This document shows positions 5,462-48,544 of a stretch of DNA of 64,000 nucleotides, one piece after another (the first letter of the stretch is position 1; the number at the start of each line of letters is the position of its first letter). The DNA comes from an archaeon (GTDB lineage: Archaea; EX4484-52; WAPT01). The notes under the pieces are model-generated. The model was not told the origin of the DNA, searched no databases, and was given only the letters and a program-made list of their open reading frames with translations. The stretch covers positions 22,564 through 86,563 of the forward strand of contig JAPDKB010000009.1 in NCBI GenBank assembly GCA_029258795.1. The letters are read 5' to 3'. Both the position numbers and the translations under genes were made by a program.

Positions 5462-7044
<1,583 letters not shown>

Positions 7045-24375: not shown

Positions 24376-25082
24376 ACAGCACCCTGAACCATACCAGTTC
24401 TCTTGATTTCTTCCTCGCCAACCTTCATTTTGTTGAGGTTTCTGAAAGCATCAATGGCCGCTCCCACAAAATTAAGTCGGGTTCTCGTGTCTCCAAAGGA
24501 CTGAGACCACACATCCTTAATACCAGCCAGCCTCATAACTTTCTTTAGTTCCTCTCCAACCACGAGTCCCACTCCTTTCGGAGCGGGCATCAGCACAACT
24601 CTGACGCTACCCATCTTACCCATGACTCTGAAAGGTATGGAGTGATGACCCCTGCATCCACACTCCCAGGATCCACACCCTCTCCTTATGGGGAATATGT
24701 TCAGTTTGGCTTTTCTTATTGCTTTCTCTATAACCTCTCTGGCACTCTTACCTCTTGCCACACCAAATCCTATCAGCCCGTTCTCGTTTCCAACGATAGC
24801 AGCAGCATGAAGGGTCCTTCTCCTTCCTGACTTGTGCATCCTCACGGTGGATCTTATGGGTACTCTTCTCTTACCACCACCCTTACCGCTCACACCACCT
24901 ATGTTTATGAGCTCTTCCTTCAAATCGGGCACGAGATAATCAACTATTTCCGGCTCTTTTATAACATAACCTCTAGCAAAAATCTCCTCTATTGACTTTA
25001 TCTCTCCTTCTTTAACCATCCTTCCGAGTTCCGTCCTCGGTACCCAATCCTCCAGTGAGGTTTTCACGGCCATGTTAATCAC
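24372..25082 (-). CDS. rps5: 30S ribosomal protein S5 (uS5)
   Basis: GKGGGKRRVPIRSTVRMHKSGRRRTLHAAAIVGNENGLIGFGVARGKS. Confidence 0.9.
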   Translation of the reverse strand: MINMAVKTSLEDWVPRTELGRMVKEGEIKSIEEIFARGYVIKEPEIVDYLVPDLKEELINIGGVSGKGGGKRRVPIRSTVRMHKSGRRRTLHAAAIVGNENGLIGFGVARGKSAREVIEKAIRKAKLNIFPIRRGCGSWECGCRGHHSIPFRVMGKMGSVRVVLMPAPKGVGLVVGEELKKVMRLAGIKDVWSQSFGDTRTRLNFVGAAIDAFRNLNKMKVGEEEIKRTGMVQGAV

Positions 25083-25639
25083 TCATCATGGGATTTCTTC
25101 TTTTTACCGGATTTTTTGGATTCGCCACTTTTAGCAGAGAACACCTTATCAATATTTTCCTTAACCTTTTTGAAGGTTTCCACAACCTTCCTGCTTATGT
25201 GCTCACCCATTATCCTACTCTCATCCGGAACCTTGTCTGGAGAGTGAGGGATGTTCAATCCAGCATCCACCGCTCCTTTGAGCACAGCGAATATTCTGGC
25301 TCCTTTGGTTGAAGTGTGTCTCCCTATGTCGAGTATGGCTTCATTTATACCTTCTTTCAAGGCCATCTTGCCGATGAGGTATCCGGTTAGGTAAGCTGCG
25401 GGCGTGTTTTTGAAGGATGTGATATCCCATCCATACTCCGCAAGCTTTTTGGAAGTAACCATGACTTTAGTAACATCTCCCTTAGGGTTGAACTCTCTTA
25501 TGTGGGCTATTATCTGCGTGTTCGTCCTTCTGACAGTAAGTATTGGCTTGCCGCTCTTAACAAGAGCCAGCCTTTTCTTGTAATCAGTTTTTCCTTCCCT
25601 TCTCCTCCTGAATTTCATTAAGTAACCGCGTTTCCCCAT
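25079..25639 (-). CDS. rpl18: 50S ribosomal protein L18 (uL18)
   Basis: RRRREGKTDYKKRLALVKSGKPILTVRRTNTQIIAHI. Confidence 0.9.
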   Translation of the reverse strand: MGKRGYLMKFRRRREGKTDYKKRLALVKSGKPILTVRRTNTQIIAHIREFNPKGDVTKVMVTSKKLAEYGWDITSFKNTPAAYLTGYLIGKMALKEGINEAILDIGRHTSTKGARIFAVLKGAVDAGLNIPHSPDKVPDESRIMGEHISRKVVETFKKVKENIDKVFSAKSGESKKSGKKKKSHDE

Positions 25640-31401: not shown

Positions 31402-31616
31402 TTCTTACTAAGCACCTCTTTTTCCCTTTTTATGGTCAATATCCTTGCTATAGTTCTTTTTATCTCTCTGACCTTACCTGGATTGTCCGGCACGCCTCCC
31501 ACCTTTGCCTTTGCTCTTTCTTTCATCAGCTCCATTCTCAAATCTGCGAGTTTCTTCTCAAGTTCTTCGTCACTCATGTCTCTTATCTGTGTTGCCTTGA
31601 GTATTGCCATGATCAT
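31398..31616 (-). CDS. rpl29: 50S ribosomal protein L29 (uL29)
   Basis: [17 protein letters not shown]. Confidence 0.85.
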
Positions 31617-32503
31617 TCACCACTTTTCTTTTCCTCATTTTTCTTCACAGAGCCCGAAGCATCAGCATCGGATTTCTTTCCCTTATCCATACCTTCCTTT
31701 TTCTTGACCTCTTTCTTCCTCTCATCACCCTTCTTCTCAGCCGTCTTCTTTTCCGCTTTTTTTGCCTTCTCCTTTACAGCGTTCTTCTCATCACTCCCTT
31801 CCTTTGTTTCCTCAACCTTTTCCTCCTCCTTCTCAGCTTCCTCCTCTTCCTTATCCTCTTCTTTCTTTACCGCGAACTTCTTAATGATGTCCTCACTTAT
31901 TTCTACTTCTCCCCGCGCAACTCTCTTTTCAAGTTCCATCTCAGGAGGCATAAAAGGCATTATTTCGACCTTTACTCCGATAACTCCCGGCTTGAGCACG
32001 GCTTGTTCCTTCGCAACATCCACGTATTCCTGAGCTGGATGTCCGCATTTCATGACATAACCAGCAACATACTTTTCTGTTCTGTGTCTCTCTCCCGTGA
32101 GCTTCCCGCTTACATCTATTTCAACACCAACCGCTCCAGCTTCCATGATCCTGTTGAGATACATGGTGACTACGCGCTTATAGTGCAAGCCCCTTTCAAG
32201 AGCGAATTTTATGCGTTTGGCAACCACCTTTGCATCAAGATAAGGATTATCAACACCTTTAACCTCTATCTGCGGGTTCTCTATGCCAAACTCCTCCTTC
32301 ATTTTTTCCTGAATCTTGGCTATTCTTTCTCCACCCCTACCTATGACAAGTGCGGGTCTTCCAGCATATATAACTATTCTGGTTGCCAGAGGAGTCCTCT
32401 TAATCTCACACCGGCTGTACTCCGCTCTATCCAGCTCTTTATCCAAAAATTCAGCTATCTTCATGTTCACTATTCCTTCCTGAACGAACTTTCTCTCTAT
32501 CAT
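31613..32503 (-). CDS. rps3: 30S ribosomal protein S3 (uS3) with a ~90 aa K/E-rich C-terminal tail
   Basis: KH domain at the N-terminus, then [20 protein letters not shown]; lysine-rich tail. Confidence 0.9.
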
Positions 32504-38532: not shown

Positions 38533-40155
38533 TCAGAACAGCTCAACCTTCTCAATCTTTCTTAGAAGGATCTCAGGTCTCTTTATTTCATGTCCCTCCT
38601 CCAGCTTTCTTCCACACAGTTTCCAGCTAATCTCGTTTATGTTCATGATGTCAAGCGCTTTTCCACATGTGTGGGGTATAACTGGGTAGAGCATCAGGCA
38701 TATGTCCTTAGCGAGGTTTAGAGAGTGAGATAGCACCTTATGTGCCATCTTTTTATCTTCCTTCACGAGCTTCCACGGCTCGTGCTGCTGGAAGTAGGAG
38801 TTACCTATTGAAGCCAGCTTATCTATGGTCTCTACAGCACCTTTAATGTTCCACTTTTCATAACTTTCCCTCGCTTTTTCAATAAGTCCCATTACTTCCC
38901 TGAACTCCTCCTGTTCGTACGTCTCCACTCCTATCGTTTTACCCTCAAAATTCTTGTGAAGGAAGCTCAACACACGATAAACGAAGTTAATCATGTTACC
39001 CACAAGCACGTTGTTTATGGCAGCCATGAAAGCTTCCCTGCTCAGATCTATGTCCGTTATGTTATTTGATGTGTGGTAAGCAAAATAAAACCTCAGATAT
39101 TCCGGATTCCCAACCTTTTCCAGATAATCCTTGGCGGTTATGAAGGTGCCCCTGCTTTTACTCATCTTTTCTCCTTCAACCGTAAGGAAACCGTGAGTGT
39201 GAAGGTAATCTGGCAGTCTAAAGCCAGATGCCATCAGCATGGCAGGCCAGAAGAGGTAATGGAAATAGATTATATCCTTTCCTATCACATGCACAATTGA
39301 ATGGCTTTCACCTTTCCATATTTTTTTCCAATCACACCCAGCTTTTTTGCAGTAGTTTGCGGTTGAGGCAATGTATCCTATTGGCGCGTCCCACCACACG
39401 TAAAAATACTTGTTTTCCTCCTCCGGAATCTTGAATCCGAAGTAAGGTCCATCTCTCGATATGCACCAGTCCTCAAGCCCCTTTTCCAACCATTCCTTGA
39501 TGTAGTTCTTGACCTCTTCTTGGAGGGGGGCTTCCTCCATCCAGTGCTTTAGCTTCTCCTCAAACGCGCTGAGCTTGAAGAAATAATGCTTGCTTTTTTT
39601 CACCACAGGCATGCTTCCACATATTGCGCATCTCGGGTTTTTGAGGTTGAAGGGCGTGTATGTTGCACCACACTTTTCACACACATCCCCGTACTGGTCT
39701 TCTGCTCCACACTTAGGACATGTGCCCTTAACATACCTGTCCGGCAGAAATCTCTCGCATTTCTCACAGTAAAGAAGCTCTACTTCCTTCGTGTAAATGT
39801 ATCCCTTTTCCCTTGCATTTTCAAACATCTCTACCGCTATCTTTTCATTCTCATCGCTGTGTGTGATGTGGTAGTTGTCAACGCTTATCATGAACTCGTC
39901 CAGCACCTTTTTGAACTTCTCATGGTTTTCCATCACGAAGCTCAGCGGGTCTTTTCCCGCTTTTCTCGCGTTGATTTCTATGGGGGTGCCGTGCGCATCT
40001 GTAGCACAAACATAAATGACGCGCTTCCCAACCATTCTGTAGAACCTAGCTATTATGTCTGTTATTATGAACTCGTACAAGTGACCGAAGTGCGGTTCGC
40101 CATTTCCGTAGGGAAGAGCCGATGTCATGAGCAAGTTTTCTTTGAGTTTCATCAC
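38533..40155 (-). CDS. metG: Methionyl-tRNA synthetase
   Basis: SALPYGNGEPHFGHL (HIGH-type), zinc knuckle CEKCERF...CPKCG, KMSKS. Confidence 0.9.
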   Translation of the reverse strand: MMKLKENLLMTSALPYGNGEPHFGHLYEFIITDIIARFYRMVGKRVIYVCATDAHGTPIEINARKAGKDPLSFVMENHEKFKKVLDEFMISVDNYHITHSDENEKIAVEMFENAREKGYIYTKEVELLYCEKCERFLPDRYVKGTCPKCGAEDQYGDVCEKCGATYTPFNLKNPRCAICGSMPVVKKSKHYFFKLSAFEEKLKHWMEEAPLQEEVKNYIKEWLEKGLEDWCISRDGPYFGFKIPEEENKYFYVWWDAPIGYIASTANYCKKAGCDWKKIWKGESHSIVHVIGKDIIYFHYLFWPAMLMASGFRLPDYLHTHGFLTVEGEKMSKSRGTFITAKDYLEKVGNPEYLRFYFAYHTSNNITDIDLSREAFMAAINNVLVGNMINFVYRVLSFLHKNFEGKTIGVETYEQEEFREVMGLIEKARESYEKWNIKGAVETIDKLASIGNSYFQQHEPWKLVKEDKKMAHKVLSHSLNLAKDICLMLYPVIPHTCGKALDIMNINEISWKLCGRKLEEGHEIKRPEILLRKIEKVELF

Positions 40156-41317
40156 CCTTCACCAGAGTTTTTCTTGTGGTTGTGGCAACATCTTTTATGA
40201 ATGATTCGGCACTTTTTAATATGTTTTCTACCTTGTTCAGGGAGCGCACACCCTTTGGCAGGAAAGATGGTTTGTTTATCTCCCCGTTTTCCATCAACAT
40301 CTTCACCACTTCAAAATATTGGTGCGTGACTCTTCCGGCATAAAGCACGTGTAATGATTTCCCTTTCTTTGCAACTTTTTGAATCTCCATGAAACCCTTG
40401 AGGTAAAGGTAATCTTTGGTGAATCCGCCCCCTCTGAAGCTCCTGAAGGTTAGAGTCCATGCCATCTCATCATCAAACCCCCATTCCTTCATTTTATGAA
40501 AAACTTCGGAAAAACTCAGCCCTTCAAGCATGTAATGGATGCTCAGAACACGACCGGCATAATCTCTCAGCTTGTCGCTCTCTAACATACCCGTGAGCTT
40601 TTCCATGTACACAGCCAGACCCTCTTCCGTTTCTGTGTTGCGCGGAAATCCGGAAAGAAATATATCAAGTGGTTGGGTATGGCCATTCTGCGCTCTTAAG
40701 ACATGCACACCTATTTCATGCACAACAAGCCGTTTCATTTCATTCCTGCTAAATGTTCTGTTGGCAGGAACCAGAATTTTCCTTTCGATGGGCATGACTG
40801 TGGTCAGAGTTTTGGTGGAATATTCAACCACCCATCCCTTTATACCATAGCTTTCCAGCGCCTTTTCAAACACGGCTTTTGCTTCACGCTCCGTCATTCC
40901 CGCAACTTGTGTTTTTCTTTTGCTTCCCTTATAGCGTTTGAGGATTCTTTCCGCTTCACCGATCAAGCTTGAGGATGGTCTTCCATAAACTTTCAAACTG
41001 TACTCGATCACCTCATCTTTTCCTCTGTTGGCTATTATGTGCGCAATGTTTGCAAGCTCTTCAACCTTCTGGTGGTAGAGATCATAAAGCTCGCCTTCAG
41101 GAATTTGGAGGGATGCAAGACTTTTCGCAATCTCCTTTGGGCTGAAAAAAACCACAGGGTAACGAAATTTCGGTTCCTTACCTTCACGAAAGAACCTTTC
41201 CTTCTCTTCTTTTAAATTGACAGGTTCTATTGCTCGAAGCACACCCACACTCAATTTTCTGTGTTCCTTCAATGCCAAATCAACCGCCCTGTACTTCTCA
41301 ACCACACTGCCCTTCAT
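40046..41317 (-). CDS. DUF1704-like protein (QEGLA-motif family, putative metallopeptidase)
   Basis: VVHEIGVHVLR plus TEEGLAVYME motifs; 423 aa. The last ~30 codons overlap the metG start. Confidence 0.5.
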   Translation of the reverse strand: MKGSVVEKYRAVDLALKEHRKLSVGVLRAIEPVNLKEEKERFFREGKEPKFRYPVVFFSPKEIAKSLASLQIPEGELYDLYHQKVEELANIAHIIANRGKDEVIEYSLKVYGRPSSSLIGEAERILKRYKGSKRKTQVAGMTEREAKAVFEKALESYGIKGWVVEYSTKTLTTVMPIERKILVPANRTFSRNEMKRLVVHEIGVHVLRAQNGHTQPLDIFLSGFPRNTETEEGLAVYMEKLTGMLESDKLRDYAGRVLSIHYMLEGLSFSEVFHKMKEWGFDDEMAWTLTFRSFRGGGFTKDYLYLKGFMEIQKVAKKGKSLHVLYAGRVTHQYFEVVKMLMENGEINKPSFLPKGVRSLNKVENILKSAESFIKDVATTTRKTLVKGDETQRKLAHDIGSSLRKWRTALRSLVRVHNNRHNS

Positions 41318-41318
41318 T

Positions 41319-42053
41319 CTACTCCCTCACAATTTTCATGAACCTTAGCGCGTCATCATACATCTCGTAGTTGTTGAACATAACGTACGCGCTTTTATCC
41401 CCCTTAATTTTCTCCATAACCTTTTCTTTTAGAATTGCCAGCTCATCATCACTGAACTTGTAGTCGTACATTCTTTTACCAAGCCCGTGAAGCCGGTAAT
41501 AAATTAGGGCAGTATTGTGATAGCTCTCCTGACGGAAAGGGTCTACCGCGTGCTCAACTTTAATATTGGAGAACAAATTTTTTACCACATCTTCTGTCCA
41601 CACGTTCTGCCATCTCACCTCCCACACAAAAATAAAATCATTTCTTTCCACCTCCTCAAAAAACTCCACAACCCTCCTTAGATTTTCCTCCGTCGGTTTG
41701 AAGCTTGCAGGCGTCTGAAACACAATGACCTTTGCTTCAAGAGCTTCCGCCACCTCTTTCACCCTCTCAAAAACATCCAAGCTTTCCCTTCCGAATTTGA
41801 GCTTGTGCGTTATGTCCTGATGTGTTTTGACCGTGAACTCAAAATCTTCATTGACCTCTCTCGCCTCTTCCTTCCATTTTTCAGCCGTGCTCACCTTTGG
41901 TATGCGATAAAAGGTGGAGTTGACCTCCACAACATCAAAAAGCGAAGCATACGCCTGCAGCGTGCTCTTATATCTCTCCTTCCAGTTCTCATCAACAAAC
42001 CTCTTGGGGTTAAAGAATCCCCAGCCACAACATCCTACTTTAATTTTCCCCAT
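41319..42053 (-). CDS. DUF72 family protein
   Basis: KVGCCGWGF...FYRIP... pattern typical of DUF72/UPF0759. Confidence 0.55.
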   Translation of the reverse strand: MGKIKVGCCGWGFFNPKRFVDENWKERYKSTLQAYASLFDVVEVNSTFYRIPKVSTAEKWKEEAREVNEDFEFTVKTHQDITHKLKFGRESLDVFERVKEVAEALEAKVIVFQTPASFKPTEENLRRVVEFFEEVERNDFIFVWEVRWQNVWTEDVVKNLFSNIKVEHAVDPFRQESYHNTALIYYRLHGLGKRMYDYKFSDDELAILKEKVMEKIKGDKSAYVMFNNYEMYDDALRFMKIVRE

Positions 42054-42095: not shown

Positions 42096-42977
42096 TTAAT
42101 TTTTGATTTCCCGTTCAACAAATTCAGCAAGCATTTTGGCTATGTTTTTGTCTGTGGCTTTCATCAAACCTCTTATACCTGGGTTTACATTCACCTCGAT
42201 GACGTAAGGTGTGCCTTCATCATCCACTATGATGTCAACGGCCAGAATTCTTGCCTCAAGCGCTTCCGCAGTTTTTATGGCAAGCTCCTTCACATCCTCA
42301 CTTGGATCATGCGCTACAGCTCTTCCTCCACTCGAAACGTTTGCCCTTTTTTCCCCTTCCGCTGCCAGCCTTTTCATTGCCGCAGCAACCTCGTAGCCGA
42401 GGAGAAGAACTCTCATGTCCTCTCCTTTGTTTGGTATGAATTCCTGCACCACTATCTCCTGTTTCAACGATTCCATCGAGCTGACCATGGCTTTGAGCTC
42501 CTCCTCAGTATTGGCGAACATCACACCCTTGCCTCCCGAGCCGGATACCAGCTTCACCACCACAGGAAACTCGAGCTTGTTTGTGAGCTTCTCTATGTTT
42601 TTGGAGGATTTGAGAGCGTAAGTGGTGGGCACATTTATGCCATTAGAGCCGAGAACTGTGGTTGTGAGGAATTTATCATGCGCTATTTTAAGCGTCTCAG
42701 CGGGGTATGGGTGTTTTATGCCTAGCACATCAAAAGCTTTAACCACATTATAACCGTGGAGCATGCGCTTTCCATCTATTCTGGGTAGAAAGTAATCAAA
42801 GTCGTGCAATAGCTCTCCGTTTGTTCTGACCTCAACGCCATCAGAGGATGCACACACGATTATGTCATCAAGAGGTACATTCACAACATCGAAAATCTTG
42901 TTCATTTCTTCCAAAATCAACTCAGTGGTTCTGGATTTAGCTCTGGGATGTGTTATCAGAACCTTTCTCTTGCTCAT
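42096..42977 (-). CDS. RimK-like ATP-grasp peptide ligase (alpha-L-glutamate ligase family)
   Basis: FPVVVKLVSGSGGKGVMFANTEEE...EFIPNKGEDMRVLLLG...YVIEVNVNPG ATP-grasp motifs. Confidence 0.7.
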   Translation of the reverse strand: MSKRKVLITHPRAKSRTTELILEEMNKIFDVVNVPLDDIIVCASSDGVEVRTNGELLHDFDYFLPRIDGKRMLHGYNVVKAFDVLGIKHPYPAETLKIAHDKFLTTTVLGSNGINVPTTYALKSSKNIEKLTNKLEFPVVVKLVSGSGGKGVMFANTEEELKAMVSSMESLKQEIVVQEFIPNKGEDMRVLLLGYEVAAAMKRLAAEGEKRANVSSGGRAVAHDPSEDVKELAIKTAEALEARILAVDIIVDDEGTPYVIEVNVNPGIRGLMKATDKNIAKMLAEFVEREIKN

Positions 42978-43896
42978 ATTTCCTCTTACCCCCGAGAGTG
43001 TATGCTTTAGCCACGCTCTTAAACGTGTCCACCATTCTATCTATTAAATTAAGCAGCGTATACCTCCTGTAATGCTCACTGCAACCTTTGTGCAGATAAT
43101 TTATTAACTCTTGGGTTATATCCTTGCCGAAATGTTCCTCAAACTTATCAACACGCAGCGATGTCTTTAATTTCTTTATAAGGATGGTGCTGTTTTCAAC
43201 ACTGAGCGATGCCTGGAAAACACTTGTGTGGAGAGCACTGGAAATTTTTGTCACAACCTCTTTAACTTTATTGGGAGTTTTTCTAAGTGGCTTTCCATTT
43301 TTGATGGAGTGAATGCGCGTGCCTATGACAAGAACATCAATGTCTTCCACATTTTTTCCTATTTCTTCAATCATTATTGGCTGAGAGAACAGTTCCATCG
43401 TGTCCAGAAATGTTTTGAGTGAGCTCTCAGATTCAAATATTGCGCTCCCTCCCTTTTTCATTTCAGGCATGTAAACCCTGACCGGATACCGAAGCTTCGG
43501 AAGCACAGCGTTTAACGCATCCCTTGATGTTGAAAGATAAATTCCAGAAGGGCTTTCAATTTCCATAATTTCAGCATTCAGCAAAAACGTCATGAACGGG
43601 TTTGAAGCATAACTTAAATACAAGCTGCTAACGGGCGTGAAAATCCTGTATTTTTCCAGAATGGTGCTGATTGTGTAACCGAAGTTGAGAAGCCTTGGCG
43701 GAACCATCAAAAACACCACATCAAAATCGAGGAGAGATGCAGATTTATAGTAGGGTAGGAAGTCATCACCATTCTTTTCTATCCTCACCCCTGAAAGTGG
43801 GGCATAGAGTACTTTACCAAACTTGTACTTAGATATCTCGATAAGACGTAGATGGAAATCCTTTTTCTTTTCTGGGCCAAGAATGCAAAGCTTCAT
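42937..43896 (-). CDS. Divergent RimK-like ATP-grasp paralogue with a ~100 aa C-terminal extension
   Basis: Shares the N-terminal pre-ATP-grasp layout but lacks clear catalytic motifs; overlaps the downstream RimK gene by 41 nt. Confidence 0.45.
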   Translation of the reverse strand: MKLCILGPEKKKDFHLRLIEISKYKFGKVLYAPLSGVRIEKNGDDFLPYYKSASLLDFDVVFLMVPPRLLNFGYTISTILEKYRIFTPVSSLYLSYASNPFMTFLLNAEIMEIESPSGIYLSTSRDALNAVLPKLRYPVRVYMPEMKKGGSAIFESESSLKTFLDTMELFSQPIMIEEIGKNVEDIDVLVIGTRIHSIKNGKPLRKTPNKVKEVVTKISSALHTSVFQASLSVENSTILIKKLKTSLRVDKFEEHFGKDITQELINYLHKGCSEHYRRYTLLNLIDRMVDTFKSVAKAYTLGGKRKYEQEKGSDNTSQS

Positions 43897-43908
43897 ACAA
43901 CCTCCTCT

Positions 43909-44313
43909 TTACTTTTTCATATCCTTCAGTTTGTTGGAGAAATGTGTTTTGGTGGTATCTATTATAAAGTTTCCGTGAATTATATCTCTTCCTATCAGCA
44001 CAGGACACATCATGTTGGAACGATCAGCAACGTTGGCATCAACATTGAACTTCCTTCCGTTAATCTCTATTTCAGCAGAATAAATTCCTCGCCTCACATA
44101 ACCCTGTTCAGTGGTTTTTGATTTAACCTTAACTTTTTTGTTCTTTTTCTCAAGTCCAAGTTCCTTTGCAATGTTTTTATCTATAGATGTTCTTGTAGCT
44201 CCCGTATCGAACAGTGCAAGAACTTCTTTCTCCCCTTCCCTACCCCTGACCTTGACCTTCGCAACCAGCCCAACTACCTCTTTTTTATGATGTGTATCTT
44301 CTTCTTCCATCAC
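43909..44313 (-). CDS. Retropepsin-like aspartic peptidase (RimK-associated DUF785/COG4067-type)
   Basis: VLALFDTGATRTSID DTG active-site motif and ...VLIGRDII flap-like region; 134 aa. Confidence 0.6.
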   Translation of the reverse strand: MMEEEDTHHKKEVVGLVAKVKVRGREGEKEVLALFDTGATRTSIDKNIAKELGLEKKNKKVKVKSKTTEQGYVRRGIYSAEIEINGRKFNVDANVADRSNMMCPVLIGRDIIHGNFIIDTTKTHFSNKLKDMKK

Positions 44314-44351
44314 CCGTGATATTGTGACATGGAGATATTAATTTTTTTCTT

Positions 44352-45716: not shown

Positions 45717-46967
45717 TCATCGGTTTGATCGAGGAAAGTCATTCCATTCCCACAGCGCAGTGCAACTTCTACACTCCATTAAGAACGCACACTTCTTACA
45801 TTTTTCAGGTAACGTCTTAAAATTTCTGTGTTTTTGAAGATACGGGTGTTCCTTCCAGATTTTCTCTATGCTATCGTAGAAGATATTTCCAAGGACAACG
45901 CGTGAGGAATCACATAATCTTATACTGCCGTCTGGGCCGATCATACACCAGTTTATGCCACCATCACACTTACCTCCATATTTTTTGACAATATCCCTCA
46001 AGCTTGTCATACAGAAAAACACGGGGGAAGCAAAACCAAAATTTAGACCGTATTCGTTTACTTTCTCGTCAATAATGTTAAGTAGCCAGTCTATTTCTTT
46101 TGATGAGAGGGAGAGGTGTTCTAGATTTTTGAAACCCTCCCCTACTGGCATAAATATTGTAGGGGCGCAATTATCCACACCCCGCTTGGCAGCAAATTCT
46201 AAGATTTCAGGATAGTCACGATAATTAAGTTTGGTAAGTGTTGTGTTTATCCCAACTTTAATGTCACAATCTATGGCATACTTGACATTCTTCAAAACCT
46301 TTTCAAGCGCATTACTTCCTGTCATAATCTTGTATTTTTCTCTATTCAAGGTGTGGATGGAAAACTGTATTCTCCCGATTCCGTATGATGCCAATTTCTC
46401 AACTTTTTCTCCGTTAAGAAGTGTGCCATTTGTCACCATCCCTGCCCATAGACCTTTCTCCACAAGGATGTAATGTGCTATTTTCATGAAATCATCTCTG
46501 AGCGTCGGCTCACCCCCGGTTAGATTTACATTGTATATTTCCTCCTCTACAAGCCTATCCACGAGCTCTTTCACTTTGCTAAAAGAAAGTTCAGTAAGGT
46601 GTTGAGAACCAGGACCTTTCCACACATTATAGCAGAATATACACCTGTGATTGCAGCGGGATGTAAGCTCAATTCCAACAACATACGGTTTTCTTGGAAT
46701 TACCTCTCTTTTATCTTTCACACCAGTTTTTGATGAAATTTCCAAAATCTCCTCAATCGGCTCTAAGCCTTCTATTTCAACTATTCCCGCAAGAGCTAAA
46801 AAACGGAAAACTGGTTTGAAAGTTTTTTCCATTTCTTCTTTAGACATACCTTTTCTCTTAAAGTACTTGAACGTCTCTTTTAGATTTTCTGTCTCGACAA
46901 GCTTTTTCCAGAACTCGGCATTCAAACCAAAGAGAGATATCCTTTTTCCTCTGAAAAAAAACAACAC
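45717..46967 (-). CDS. Radical SAM/SPASM-domain peptide maturase candidate, with a possible N-terminal RRE/PqqD-like region
   Basis: CNHRCIFCYN (CxxxCxxC) at ~residue 105. C-terminal Cys clusters CDGGINWCMIGPDGSIRLCD and CKKCAFLMECRSC typical of SPASM/twitch. ~95 aa precede the radical SAM core. Confidence 0.65.
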   Translation of the reverse strand: MLFFFRGKRISLFGLNAEFWKKLVETENLKETFKYFKRKGMSKEEMEKTFKPVFRFLALAGIVEIEGLEPIEEILEISSKTGVKDKREVIPRKPYVVGIELTSRCNHRCIFCYNVWKGPGSQHLTELSFSKVKELVDRLVEEEIYNVNLTGGEPTLRDDFMKIAHYILVEKGLWAGMVTNGTLLNGEKVEKLASYGIGRIQFSIHTLNREKYKIMTGSNALEKVLKNVKYAIDCDIKVGINTTLTKLNYRDYPEILEFAAKRGVDNCAPTIFMPVGEGFKNLEHLSLSSKEIDWLLNIIDEKVNEYGLNFGFASPVFFCMTSLRDIVKKYGGKCDGGINWCMIGPDGSIRLCDSSRVVLGNIFYDSIEKIWKEHPYLQKHRNFKTLPEKCKKCAFLMECRSCTALWEWNDFPRSNR

Positions 46968-47048: not shown

Positions 47049-47309
47049 CTAATCCTCCAATCCTTCAGAGAAATAATCATCTATTCTACGGTACTTTTTC
47101 TCAATTTTTTTAAGCACTTTTTGTACATCTTCCTTTCCAAAATCAAGATTTATTCCATAAGGGGGAGTGATACAAGCAAGTTTGCAGGAAACTTCATTCT
47201 CATGAGTCACACAAGCAAGTTTGCAAGAGGGTTCAGTAGTATCTATATAAATCGGAGAAAAAATTGAATCGTTCTCTTTATTTTTATTTGGGCTGTCTTT
47301 TTCACCCAT
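47049..47309 (-). CDS. Small Cys-repeat peptide (86 aa), candidate RiPP precursor
   Basis: Contains a tandem repeat EPSCKLACVTHENEV-SCKLACITPP, from an 18 nt direct DNA repeat acaagcaagtttgcaNga. It lies immediately upstream of the radical SAM/SPASM gene on the same strand. Confidence 0.45.
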   Translation of the reverse strand: MGEKDSPNKNKENDSIFSPIYIDTTEPSCKLACVTHENEVSCKLACITPPYGINLDFGKEDVQKVLKKIEKKYRRIDDYFSEGLED

Positions 47310-47864: not shown

Positions 47865-48152
47865 ATGCTGAAATATCACCGAGAAATTCTAAAGGAATTT
47901 GAGCCGATAAAAAGACGCGCGAAAGTGATACTGTTTGGTTCAGTTGCCCGGGGTGACTACACAACGGATTCAGATATAGATCTTGCGATCATTACGGATG
48001 ACGAAAAAATAAAGCGGATGGCCAGAGAGATAGCGGACAAAGTGATGGTTGAGTACGGAAAGGTCGTATCCCTGAAGTTCGTATCTCCTCAGGATTTTGA
48101 AAAGAAACAGGACCCGTTCCTTAAGGAGATAAAAAGGGGTGTTGAGATATGA
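47865..48152 (+). CDS. Minimal nucleotidyltransferase (MNT) of a HEPN/MNT pair
   Basis: ILFGSVARGDYTTDSDIDLAI. Confidence 0.7.
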   Translation: MLKYHREILKEFEPIKRRAKVILFGSVARGDYTTDSDIDLAIITDDEKIKRMAREIADKVMVEYGKVVSLKFVSPQDFEKKQDPFLKEIKRGVEI

Positions 48153-48544
48153 GTGAAAACTTGAAAGATGTTGTTAGAGAGGAGATCGAATTTGCAAGAA
48201 ACAGGTTAAAGGCAGCTAAACTACTCCTGGAGCAAAATTTACTAGCTGATGCCGTAAACAGGGCTTATTATGCAGCATTTTATGCTGCCCGTGCGATGCT
48301 GCATGTATCGGGCCATGATGCGAGAACCCATGCAGGCGTGCTTTCTGAGTTTGGTTTGAAAATTGTTAGGCAAAATCTTGCTCCAGAAAAGTACGCGAAA
48401 GTGCTTAGGCGTGCATTTGAATTAAGGGAAACAAGCGATTACGTGCTGGGTGCGGTTTTTGGGAAGGAAGAAGTCGAGACCTTGATTAGGGAGGTTGAAG
48501 ATTTTCTGAACTTTGCCGAAAAATTTGTGCAGGAAAGGTTATAA
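48149..48544 (+). CDS. HEPN domain protein
   Basis: RAYYAAFYAARAMLHVSG...; overlaps the MNT stop by 4 nt. Confidence 0.65.
   Translation: MSENLKDVVREEIEFARNRLKAAKLLLEQNLLADAVNRAYYAAFYAARAMLHVSGHDARTHAGVLSEFGLKIVRQNLAPEKYAKVLRRAFELRETSDYVLGAVFGKEEVETLIREVEDFLNFAEKFVQERL

Follow-up and report, generated by a model that had tools for sequence, protein, structure and literature searches.

In bacteria, the ligase RimK and the protease RimB are an emerging model of rapid post-translational control of the proteome. The one proven protein target of RimK is missing from archaea, which raises the question of what a RimK gene next to a RimB-like protease gene does in an archaeal genome. Such a pair is encoded in a 64,000-nt stretch of an archaeal contig (JAPDKB010000009.1, positions 22,564 to 86,563 of the forward strand, assembly GCA_029258795.1), which is called the window throughout. 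The module considered here consists of three adjacent genes. They code for a RimK-family ligase with an intact catalytic set, a RimK paralogue that is predicted to be catalytically dead (pseudo-RimK) and a RimB-like retropepsin. With moderate confidence, we interpret the module as an archaeal (DPANN-type) counterpart of the Rim system, which would build and trim alpha-linked poly-glutamate with the dead paralogue as a non-catalytic partner. Conservation of the module in very small DPANN genomes implies an important function.

The initial annotation of the window, made from its letters alone, had placed the three genes at 42096-44313 on one strand, which is the minus strand, and these boundaries proved exact. 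It had also put the ATP-grasp genes first and the protease last. In transcription the order is the opposite: the retropepsin gene comes first, the RimK paralogue second and the canonical RimK third.

The ligase, its paralogue and the retropepsin

The 293-aa protein had been named a canonical RimK-type ligase, and profile searches agree. It matched PF08443 (RimK) with 142.6 bits (threshold 21) and TIGR00768 with 179.2 bits (cut-off 143.4), while it scored only 139.7 bits with the S6--L-glutamate ligase equivalog NF007764 (cut-off 331). Its closest solved structures are bacterial RimK (118 bits), followed by ArgX (72 bits) and LysX (52 bits). A match to TTL was weak (24 bits) and covered the C-terminal 42 residues. 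The catalytic residues, numbered as in E. coli RimK, were tabulated from an alignment that covered 28 loci, with 28 active partners and as many paralogues. The window RimK holds the full set, namely K100, K141, the Gly-rich loop, E178, R189, R211/N213, G217/G218, D248, E260 and N262. Across the alignable loci, the RimK partners keep K100, K141, D187, R189, R211, N213, G217/G218, D248, E260 and N262. In the 27 loci other than the window, the GxGGxG loop and E178 are mostly kept as well, with scattered exceptions at E178 and the first glycine of the loop.

The neighbouring 319-aa protein has no Pfam or NCBIfam match of its own. It had been described as a divergent ATP-grasp paralogue overlapping RimK, a view that three comparisons bear out. 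BLASTP aligned it with the neighbouring RimK (E 4e-10), a profile of the paralogue family gave an almost full-length match to E. coli RimK in the PDB (E 4.5e-7), and a Foldseek search with an AlphaFold2 model returned RimK structures first (5zct, E 1.3e-14), the model itself being of moderate quality (predicted local distance difference test, pLDDT, 65.5). By sequence and modelled fold, the protein is a RimK homologue along almost its whole length.

The catalytic machinery of RimK is lost from it. In the window paralogue, K100 is replaced by P, K141 by Y, R189 by D, D248 by S and both E260 and N262 by K; the Gly-rich loop (145-150) is gone and the R211/N213 loop is deleted. Among the 28 loci, the Gly-rich loop and E260 are missing from every paralogue, together with at least one of D248 and N262, either of which survives singly in some. 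K100 is lost from all paralogues but one, and most carry a deletion of ~14 residues that takes out the R211-N213-G217-G218 loop. K141 is still K in most other paralogues, and R189 survives in two. The arginine R64, which contacts the poly-Glu chain in P. aeruginosa RimK, is not conserved in the family. When the genes of the loci were classified with custom hidden Markov models (HMMs), 27 of these proteins were assigned to the paralogues, and one (locus L010) is so diverged that it scored as a weak RimK match.

The paralogue is nevertheless maintained. Its ratio of nonsynonymous to synonymous substitutions (dN/dS) is 0.06-0.14, a constraint similar to that on the active RimK of these genome pairs (0.02-0.11), and 32 residues are invariant across the family. 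Since the catalytic set is gone yet the gene is under purifying selection, the protein is, to judge from its sequence, a pseudoenzyme. An exhaustive search of 1.84 billion representative proteins with the paralogue HMM gave only 199 matches. Among the matches listed, 123 of at least 250 aa were scored, and these included 62 dead-like proteins and 47 ordinary active RimKs; the dead-like proteins of this search form ~60 distinct clusters at 50% identity. The pseudo-RimK family is hence small but real and, according to the substitution ratios, under selection. The window paralogue also has an additional, conserved helix at the C-terminus, and its tail, which is species-specific, makes the gene overlap the RimK start by 41 nt. 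Because an identical 319-aa product was found in two independent read-set assemblies, neither the long C-terminus nor the gene overlap is an assembly error.

For the protease, the expectation of a 134-aa retropepsin-like peptidase with a DTG motif was upheld by profile searches. The protein, 134 aa from a GTG start or 133 aa from the ATG at 44310, matched PF13975 (43.7 bits), PF13650 (41.7 bits), the RimB-like family PF05618 (30.3 bits, gathering score 27) and also RVP. The PF05618 match spans only profile positions 54-133 and is weaker than those of the generic clan AA models PF13975 and PF13650; by sequence, membership in the PF05618/DUF785/COG4067 group is marginal. A precomputed PF05618 match is present on nearly all members of the family. 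The catalytic aspartate is D36, located within the motif ALFDTGATRTSID, and the second signature reads VLIGRDI. In the family alignment D36, T37, G38, A39, L106 and G108 are invariant and R109 and D110 nearly so; the DTGA motif is thus invariant and (L/I)IGRD almost invariant. The AlphaFold2 model is confident (pLDDT 90.5). Foldseek placed RloA (9g58/9g59, RloA and RloA2) and the Legionella DUF785 protein Lpg0085 (2pma) first, followed by DDI1 and HIV protease, and a profile search of the PDB gave the same ranking. In sequence and predicted fold, the protease is closest to the RimB/RloA/DUF785 group. Since its N-terminus is charged and has no signal peptide, it is presumably cytoplasmic like RimB, and unlike RloA.

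Organisation, distribution and neighbours

According to the list of open reading frames (ORFs) of the window, the module heads a run of five consecutive minus-strand genes from 44313 to 40046 (Table 1), in which DUF72 and MATCAP-like genes follow RimK. The spacers are, in order, 12 nt, the overlap between paralogue and RimK, 42 nt and 1 nt. An A/T-rich element upstream of the protease is a possible archaeal promoter of a transcript with little or no leader.

Table 1. Positions of the module, its downstream genes and the putative promoter element, counted from the first letter of the window
Feature	Position	Strand	Length	Basis or remark
A/T-rich TATA-like element aaaaattaatat	44335..44346	-		~25-36 nt before the start codon of the protease
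RimB-like retropepsin, clan AA aspartic peptidase	43909..44313	-	134 aa	Pfam, AlphaFold2, Foldseek
Catalytically dead RimK paralogue (pseudo-RimK)	42937..43896	-	319 aa	RimK homology, catalytic residues lost
RimK-family alpha-L-glutamate ligase (ATP-grasp)	42096..42977	-	293 aa	PF08443, TIGR00768
DUF72 TIM-barrel protein	41319..42053	-	244 aa	PF01904, 129.3 bits
MATCAP/TMCP-family metallocarboxypeptidase homologue (former DUF1704, 'QEGLA')	40046..41317	-	423 aa	PF08014, TIGR02421

The initial annotation had named a lack of synteny in any related genome as grounds for rejection, but the three genes recur in many genomes with differing surroundings. Close relatives, in which the paralogue is 42-53% identical, share all five genes. 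Their synteny is weak evidence of a functional link because the whole neighbourhood is shared as well. More distant loci were reached from retropepsin homologues (L008-L010) and by scanning 185,579 species genomes for a pattern drawn from the paralogue alignment, which gave 24 loci. Almost all of the scanned loci are labelled DPANN/Nanobdellati (Nanohalarchaeota, Nanohaloarchaea, Aenigmatarchaeota, Woesearchaeota), and the closest relatives of the window are metagenome-assembled genomes (MAGs) named 'Nanobdellati archaeon'. Three short module contigs (L015, L027, L029) come from MAGs labelled Methanosarcinales, Campylobacterales and Bathyarchaeota, all of the study series SFP3_*, and are probably mis-binned DPANN.

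A dead RimK is paired with an active one in each of the 24 further distinct loci in which both genes are complete. In 18 of 26 further distinct loci the retropepsin lies next to the pair, and the contexts otherwise share nothing. In L008 the trio lies between the genes of rpS2 and glutamyl-tRNA synthetase, in L009 it follows a DHH protein, and in L010, a Diapherotrites MAG, the retropepsin gene is oriented divergently to an operon that contains pseudo-RimK, RimK, MATCAP and an M29 peptidase. Three loci show the order retropepsin, RimK, paralogue.

A side observation concerns the end of the paralogue. In the very clade that has no retropepsin (L021-L024, L026-L028), pseudo-RimK ends in ...WKS(H/D)E and hence in a C-terminal Glu. 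Outside this clade its C-terminus is basic.

The initial annotation had mentioned DUF72 and DUF1704 genes beside the module. Both are present in the window, but they are lineage-restricted accessories outside the conserved core, and DUF1704 is by now named MATCAP, a family of carboxypeptidases. The 423-aa protein matched PF08014 with 244.7 bits (threshold 27); with the hypothetical equivalog TIGR02421 ('QEGLA motif protein') it reached 260.8 bits, below the cut-off of 338.65, and its own version of that motif is EEGLA. Its HEIGVH and TEEGLA segments align with HEIGTH and TEEGLA of human MATCAP (7z5g). An HExxxH metal motif with a third ligand in EEG has been described for the TMCP/MATCAP family, whose enzymes act on tubulin, where they take off C-terminal Tyr and Glu and shorten chains of poly-Glu (PMC10499314). 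By analogy, the window protein is a probable trimmer of C-terminal Glu residues. MATCAP is linked to the RimK pair independently in the Diapherotrites MAG. Bacterial MATCAP/DUF1704 domains commonly occur as fusions with an N-formylglutamate amidohydrolase (FGase) domain, with a total length of 662-673 aa; in the single bacterial locus inspected (L037:4990-8022), such a fusion lies beside a glutathione-synthetase/RimK-type ATP-grasp ligase and a BshC-like gene. DUF72 occurs together with the module only in the clade of the window (L003, L006, L012). The literature on DUF72 offers only a computational prediction of an endonuclease-IV-like role in DNA repair, and we treat the protein as a passenger.

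Other lineages have different genes at this place. In L016 (L016:2478-3533), L017, L025 and L029, the RimK stop codon lies within the gene of a carboxypeptidase of the AstE/AspA type (M14-like; PF24827, 111 bits). To judge from the gene arrangements, carboxypeptidases were recruited next to RimK independently, MATCAP-like in the window clade and L010 and M14-like in these four loci. In six loci of the Nanohaloarchaea type (L021-L023, L026-L028; e.g. L023:9751-10545), a gene of 264-266 aa for an MscS-like channel follows RimK and starts no more than 4 nt from its stop. In a Woesearchaeota locus (L033:2244-3071), an MscS-like gene lies upstream of the retropepsin and overlaps its start. The two groups of channels are only 25-31% identical to each other and differ in arrangement. 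Such channels within the operons may point to a connection with osmotic or glutamate homeostasis.

Downstream of the MATCAP-like gene, the next ORF codes for a putative methionyl-tRNA synthetase (MetRS), the orthologues of which in L003 and L006 match PF09334 (tRNA-synt_1g). As listed, the MATCAP-like ORF and the longest MetRS ORF overlap by 110 nt (40046-40155). The true MetRS start is probably a downstream Met (MTSALPYGNG...), as in relatives.

Possible functions of the module

The closest model is the Pseudomonas RimA-RimB-RimK system (Little 2016, Grenga 2020, Thompson 2022, Little 2025). There RimK polyglutamylates the C-terminus of RpsF, and the RimK of both E. coli and Pseudomonas also makes free poly-alpha-Glu, a synthesis that RimB stimulates (PMC11957791). 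RimB is a retropepsin-like endopeptidase with a catalytic D31 in its DTG motif and needs ~5 consecutive Glu (PMC11957791). It takes poly-Glu off RpsF, binds RimK and stimulates it, and RimB-RimK fusion proteins exist (PMC11957791; PMC10092738). The pairing of bacterial RimK ligases with DUF785/COG4067 peptidases had been called uncharacterised in the initial annotation, which these studies contradict. Only Pseudomonas RimB and the D. psychrophila RimBK hybrid, however, are known to cleave poly-Glu tails and to stimulate RimK (PMC11957791).

On this basis, we propose the following scheme. The active RimK would add L-glutamates stepwise and at the expense of ATP to the C-terminal glutamate of an acceptor, for which the tail of some protein is favoured. 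The dead paralogue, which has lost the elements for ATP/Mg catalysis and the acceptor-binding arginines, may serve as a non-catalytic partner. RimK is a tetramer (PMC10092738), and most probably the paralogue would replace some of its subunits and in this way set activity, chain length or choice of target. A dimer of the RimB-like retropepsin would cut within poly-Glu chains and, like RimB in Pseudomonas, may also stimulate the ligase. In the lineage of the window, the MATCAP-type metallocarboxypeptidase would strip the remaining C-terminal glutamates singly. Taken together, these parts would form a reversible writer/eraser system, for which we infer glutamate as the substrate, a hetero-oligomer of the two RimK proteins, the specificities of the peptidases and the nature of the acceptor. 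The paralogue offers a clean, testable case of a pseudoenzyme that partners its active sibling.

The archaeal module resembles Pseudomonas RimA-RimB-RimK in that the genes of a RimK-type ligase and of a small DTG retropepsin of the cytoplasm (PF05618/DUF785) are co-transcribed, and the catalytic residues of both proteins are conserved. Probably it also shares the pairing of a poly-alpha-Glu writer with an endopeptidase that acts as eraser and activator. It differs from the bacterial system by its archaeal (DPANN) host, by the lack of RimA, an EAL phosphodiesterase or an input of cyclic di-GMP, and by the obligate dead RimK paralogue, which typically lies between protease and ligase. Exopeptidases (MATCAP- or M14-like) or MscS-like channels are added by lineage. 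The host, the dead partner and these lineage-specific additions are new with respect to bacterial Rim. The published surveys of Rim and Rlo consulted here are purely bacterial, and the word 'archaea' has 0 occurrences in them (PMC11957791, PMC12239564, PMC10092738). A literature search for an archaeal or DPANN RimK/RimB module found RimK and DPANN mentioned together in two papers, only in passing. No paper was found that combines MATCAP or KIAA0895 with RimK or ATP-grasp proteins, although an earlier mention in comparative genomics is possible.

Three further systems are comparable in part. Pseudomonas RloA-RloB-RloC combines a RimK-related ATP-grasp protein with a retropepsin that falls into the same structural group, and it shares a possible link to osmotic stress, but RloA carries signal peptides and acts outside the cytoplasm, and the pseudoenzyme of Rlo is a transglutaminase instead of a ligase. 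In the eukaryotic cycle on tubulin tails (TTL/TTLL versus MATCAP/TMCP and CCP), an ATP-grasp ligase is opposed by an HExxxH/EEG carboxypeptidase of the MATCAP type. The M14-type carboxypeptidases of other DPANN loci and the Glu chemistry on acidic C-terminal tails are further likenesses. RimK, however, does not belong to the TTL/TTLL family, its extensions are alpha-linked and linear, not gamma-branched on side chains, no tubulin is encoded in the archaeal loci, and the archaeal genes are linked in operons. LysX/ArgX-LysW and MptN/CofF, which represent the characterised archaeal proteins of the RimK family, belong to the same RimK/LysX ATP-grasp superfamily as the ligase of the module and likewise act by ligation to the carboxylate of a glutamate. 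They lack an associated peptidase or dead paralogue, and the archaeal module has neither a carrier protein nor pathway genes.

Several points weigh against our interpretation. Seven loci (L021-L024, L026-L028) keep the RimK pair without a retropepsin, so that the protease is not an obligatory part. MATCAP-like genes often lie apart from RimK, and the contexts in L035 and L036 show no ligase. The M29 aminopeptidase of L010 and the MscS-like channels fit a role in free peptides or osmosis better than a protein tag. In the loci surveyed, the module is accompanied by neither a conserved small ORF nor a conserved Glu-tailed protein that could be a co-encoded acceptor, and a Glu-rich C-terminus is not consistent on any module protein. 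Archaea are, to our knowledge, without bacterial-type S6 (bS6), the sole protein proven to be a RimK substrate, and the S6 C-terminus that had been suggested initially as a substrate is therefore inapplicable. Finally, the activity, complex formation and substrate of the archaeal module are inferred here.

A more specific form of our interpretation would be a polyglutamylation code on protein C-termini in DPANN archaea. RimK and pseudo-RimK would write tails on a core protein, for example a ribosomal one, the RimB-like and MATCAP-type peptidases would erase them, and the dead subunit would select the target. We put this forward tentatively and consider it rather less than probable. If true, it would be the first archaeal protein-glutamylation system and a prokaryotic precedent for the pairing of ligase and MATCAP used on tubulin tails. 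The only characterised members of the MATCAP family are eukaryotic tubulin tail carboxypeptidases/deglutamylases, and lineages with the module have independently recruited different carboxypeptidases for glutamate tails; the module bears on the origin of the eukaryotic tail-modification toolkit. Among the proteins of the window, a C-terminal Glu is found only on uS3, uL18 and DUF72, and the Glu tail of DUF72 is not conserved among its orthologues. The genes of uS3 (31613-32503, minus strand; long C-terminal extension) and uL18 (25079-25639, minus strand; ends ...KKKKSHDE) encode candidate RimK acceptors.

The rival that survives best keeps the enzymology and dispenses with the protein target. 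RimK would produce free poly-alpha-L-glutamate to buffer the glutamate pool and the osmotic balance: polymerisation would cut the number of osmolytes, the endo- and exopeptidases would give glutamate back, and the MscS-like channels would vent solutes. The channel genes in the module operons of six Nanohaloarchaea-type loci and one Woesearchaeota locus point to this alternative role in glutamate or osmotic homeostasis. An aminopeptidase such as the M29 enzyme beside MATCAP in L010 would be sensible only on free peptides. The free polymer of E. coli and Pseudomonas RimK provides a precedent, the authors of that work discuss the osmotic consequences of poly-alpha-Glu (PMC11957791), and tolerance of osmotic stress depends on the related Rlo retropepsins, which are secreted and encoded with an ATP-grasp protein in the RloABC operon (PMC12239564). 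On the other hand, the window operon has no channel gene and MscS linkage is confined to two lineages, polymer synthesis does not obviously require a dead paralogue, and characterised enzymes of the MATCAP family work on protein tails. A free polymer is a serious possibility, but in our estimate it falls well short of being probable.

Glutamylation of a small-molecule cofactor, as by MptN (tetrahydromethanopterin) or CofF (F420), with the peptidases as unrelated neighbours, is unlikely. Those archaeal RimK homologues that have been characterised to date are cofactor ligases (mentioned in PMC11957791), and the window RimK does match the NCBIfam models of both. Its scores, 139.3 bits for MptN and 101.1 bits for CofF, are far below the cut-offs of 350 and 300, and bacterial RimK provides the nearest structures. 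We know of no DPANN archaea that make methanogenic cofactors. The peptidases are unlikely to be chance neighbours because the retropepsin adjoins most of the pairs and carboxypeptidases were recruited independently in at least two lineages.

Even less probable is a LysX/ArgX-type ligase in a biosynthetic pathway with the carrier protein LysW. ArgX and LysX are the next-best structures after RimK, and the LysX equivalog TIGR02144 matched with 129.2 bits, but its cut-off is 275.6. None of the loci has a LysW-like zinc-ribbon ORF with a terminal Glu near the module, LysY/Z/J/K genes were not seen in the Pfam-annotated neighbourhoods of the module, and DPANN genomes are poor in biosynthetic pathways. 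That the paralogue is a decaying tandem duplicate of meaningless adjacency, as its loss of all catalytic residues and of any profile match might suggest, is highly improbable and effectively refuted by the data on selection and conservation, namely the low dN/dS, the invariant residues and the number of dead-like clusters, along with intact ORFs across several DPANN phyla that pair with an active RimK wherever both genes are complete.

Further observations in the window

Upstream of the module, an ORF of 86 aa (47049-47309, minus strand) contains the motif 'SCKLAC(V/I)T' in repeated copies and matches no Pfam family. It lies directly upstream, on the same strand, of a gene for a radical SAM/SPASM enzyme (45717-46967, minus strand; PF04055 108 bits, PF13186 37 bits). 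To judge from sequence and order, the two look like the precursor and maturase of a ribosomally synthesised and post-translationally modified peptide.

On the plus strand (47865-48544), a nucleotidyltransferase-like ORF of 95 aa is followed by an ORF of 131 aa. Relatives with the same neighbourhood (L006, L007) have HEPN/NTP_transf_2 pairs of 95 and 133 aa, and the pair in the window is probably an MNT-HEPN toxin-antitoxin system.

The window also contains an rRNA operon and an archaeal RNase P. The 16S rRNA match (5462-7044, minus strand) is 1583 nt long versus 1478 positions of the model, and the gene seems to carry an insertion of ~100 nt. At ~60%, the G+C content of the rRNA exceeds that of the remaining window (~43%), a difference that suggests a thermophile.

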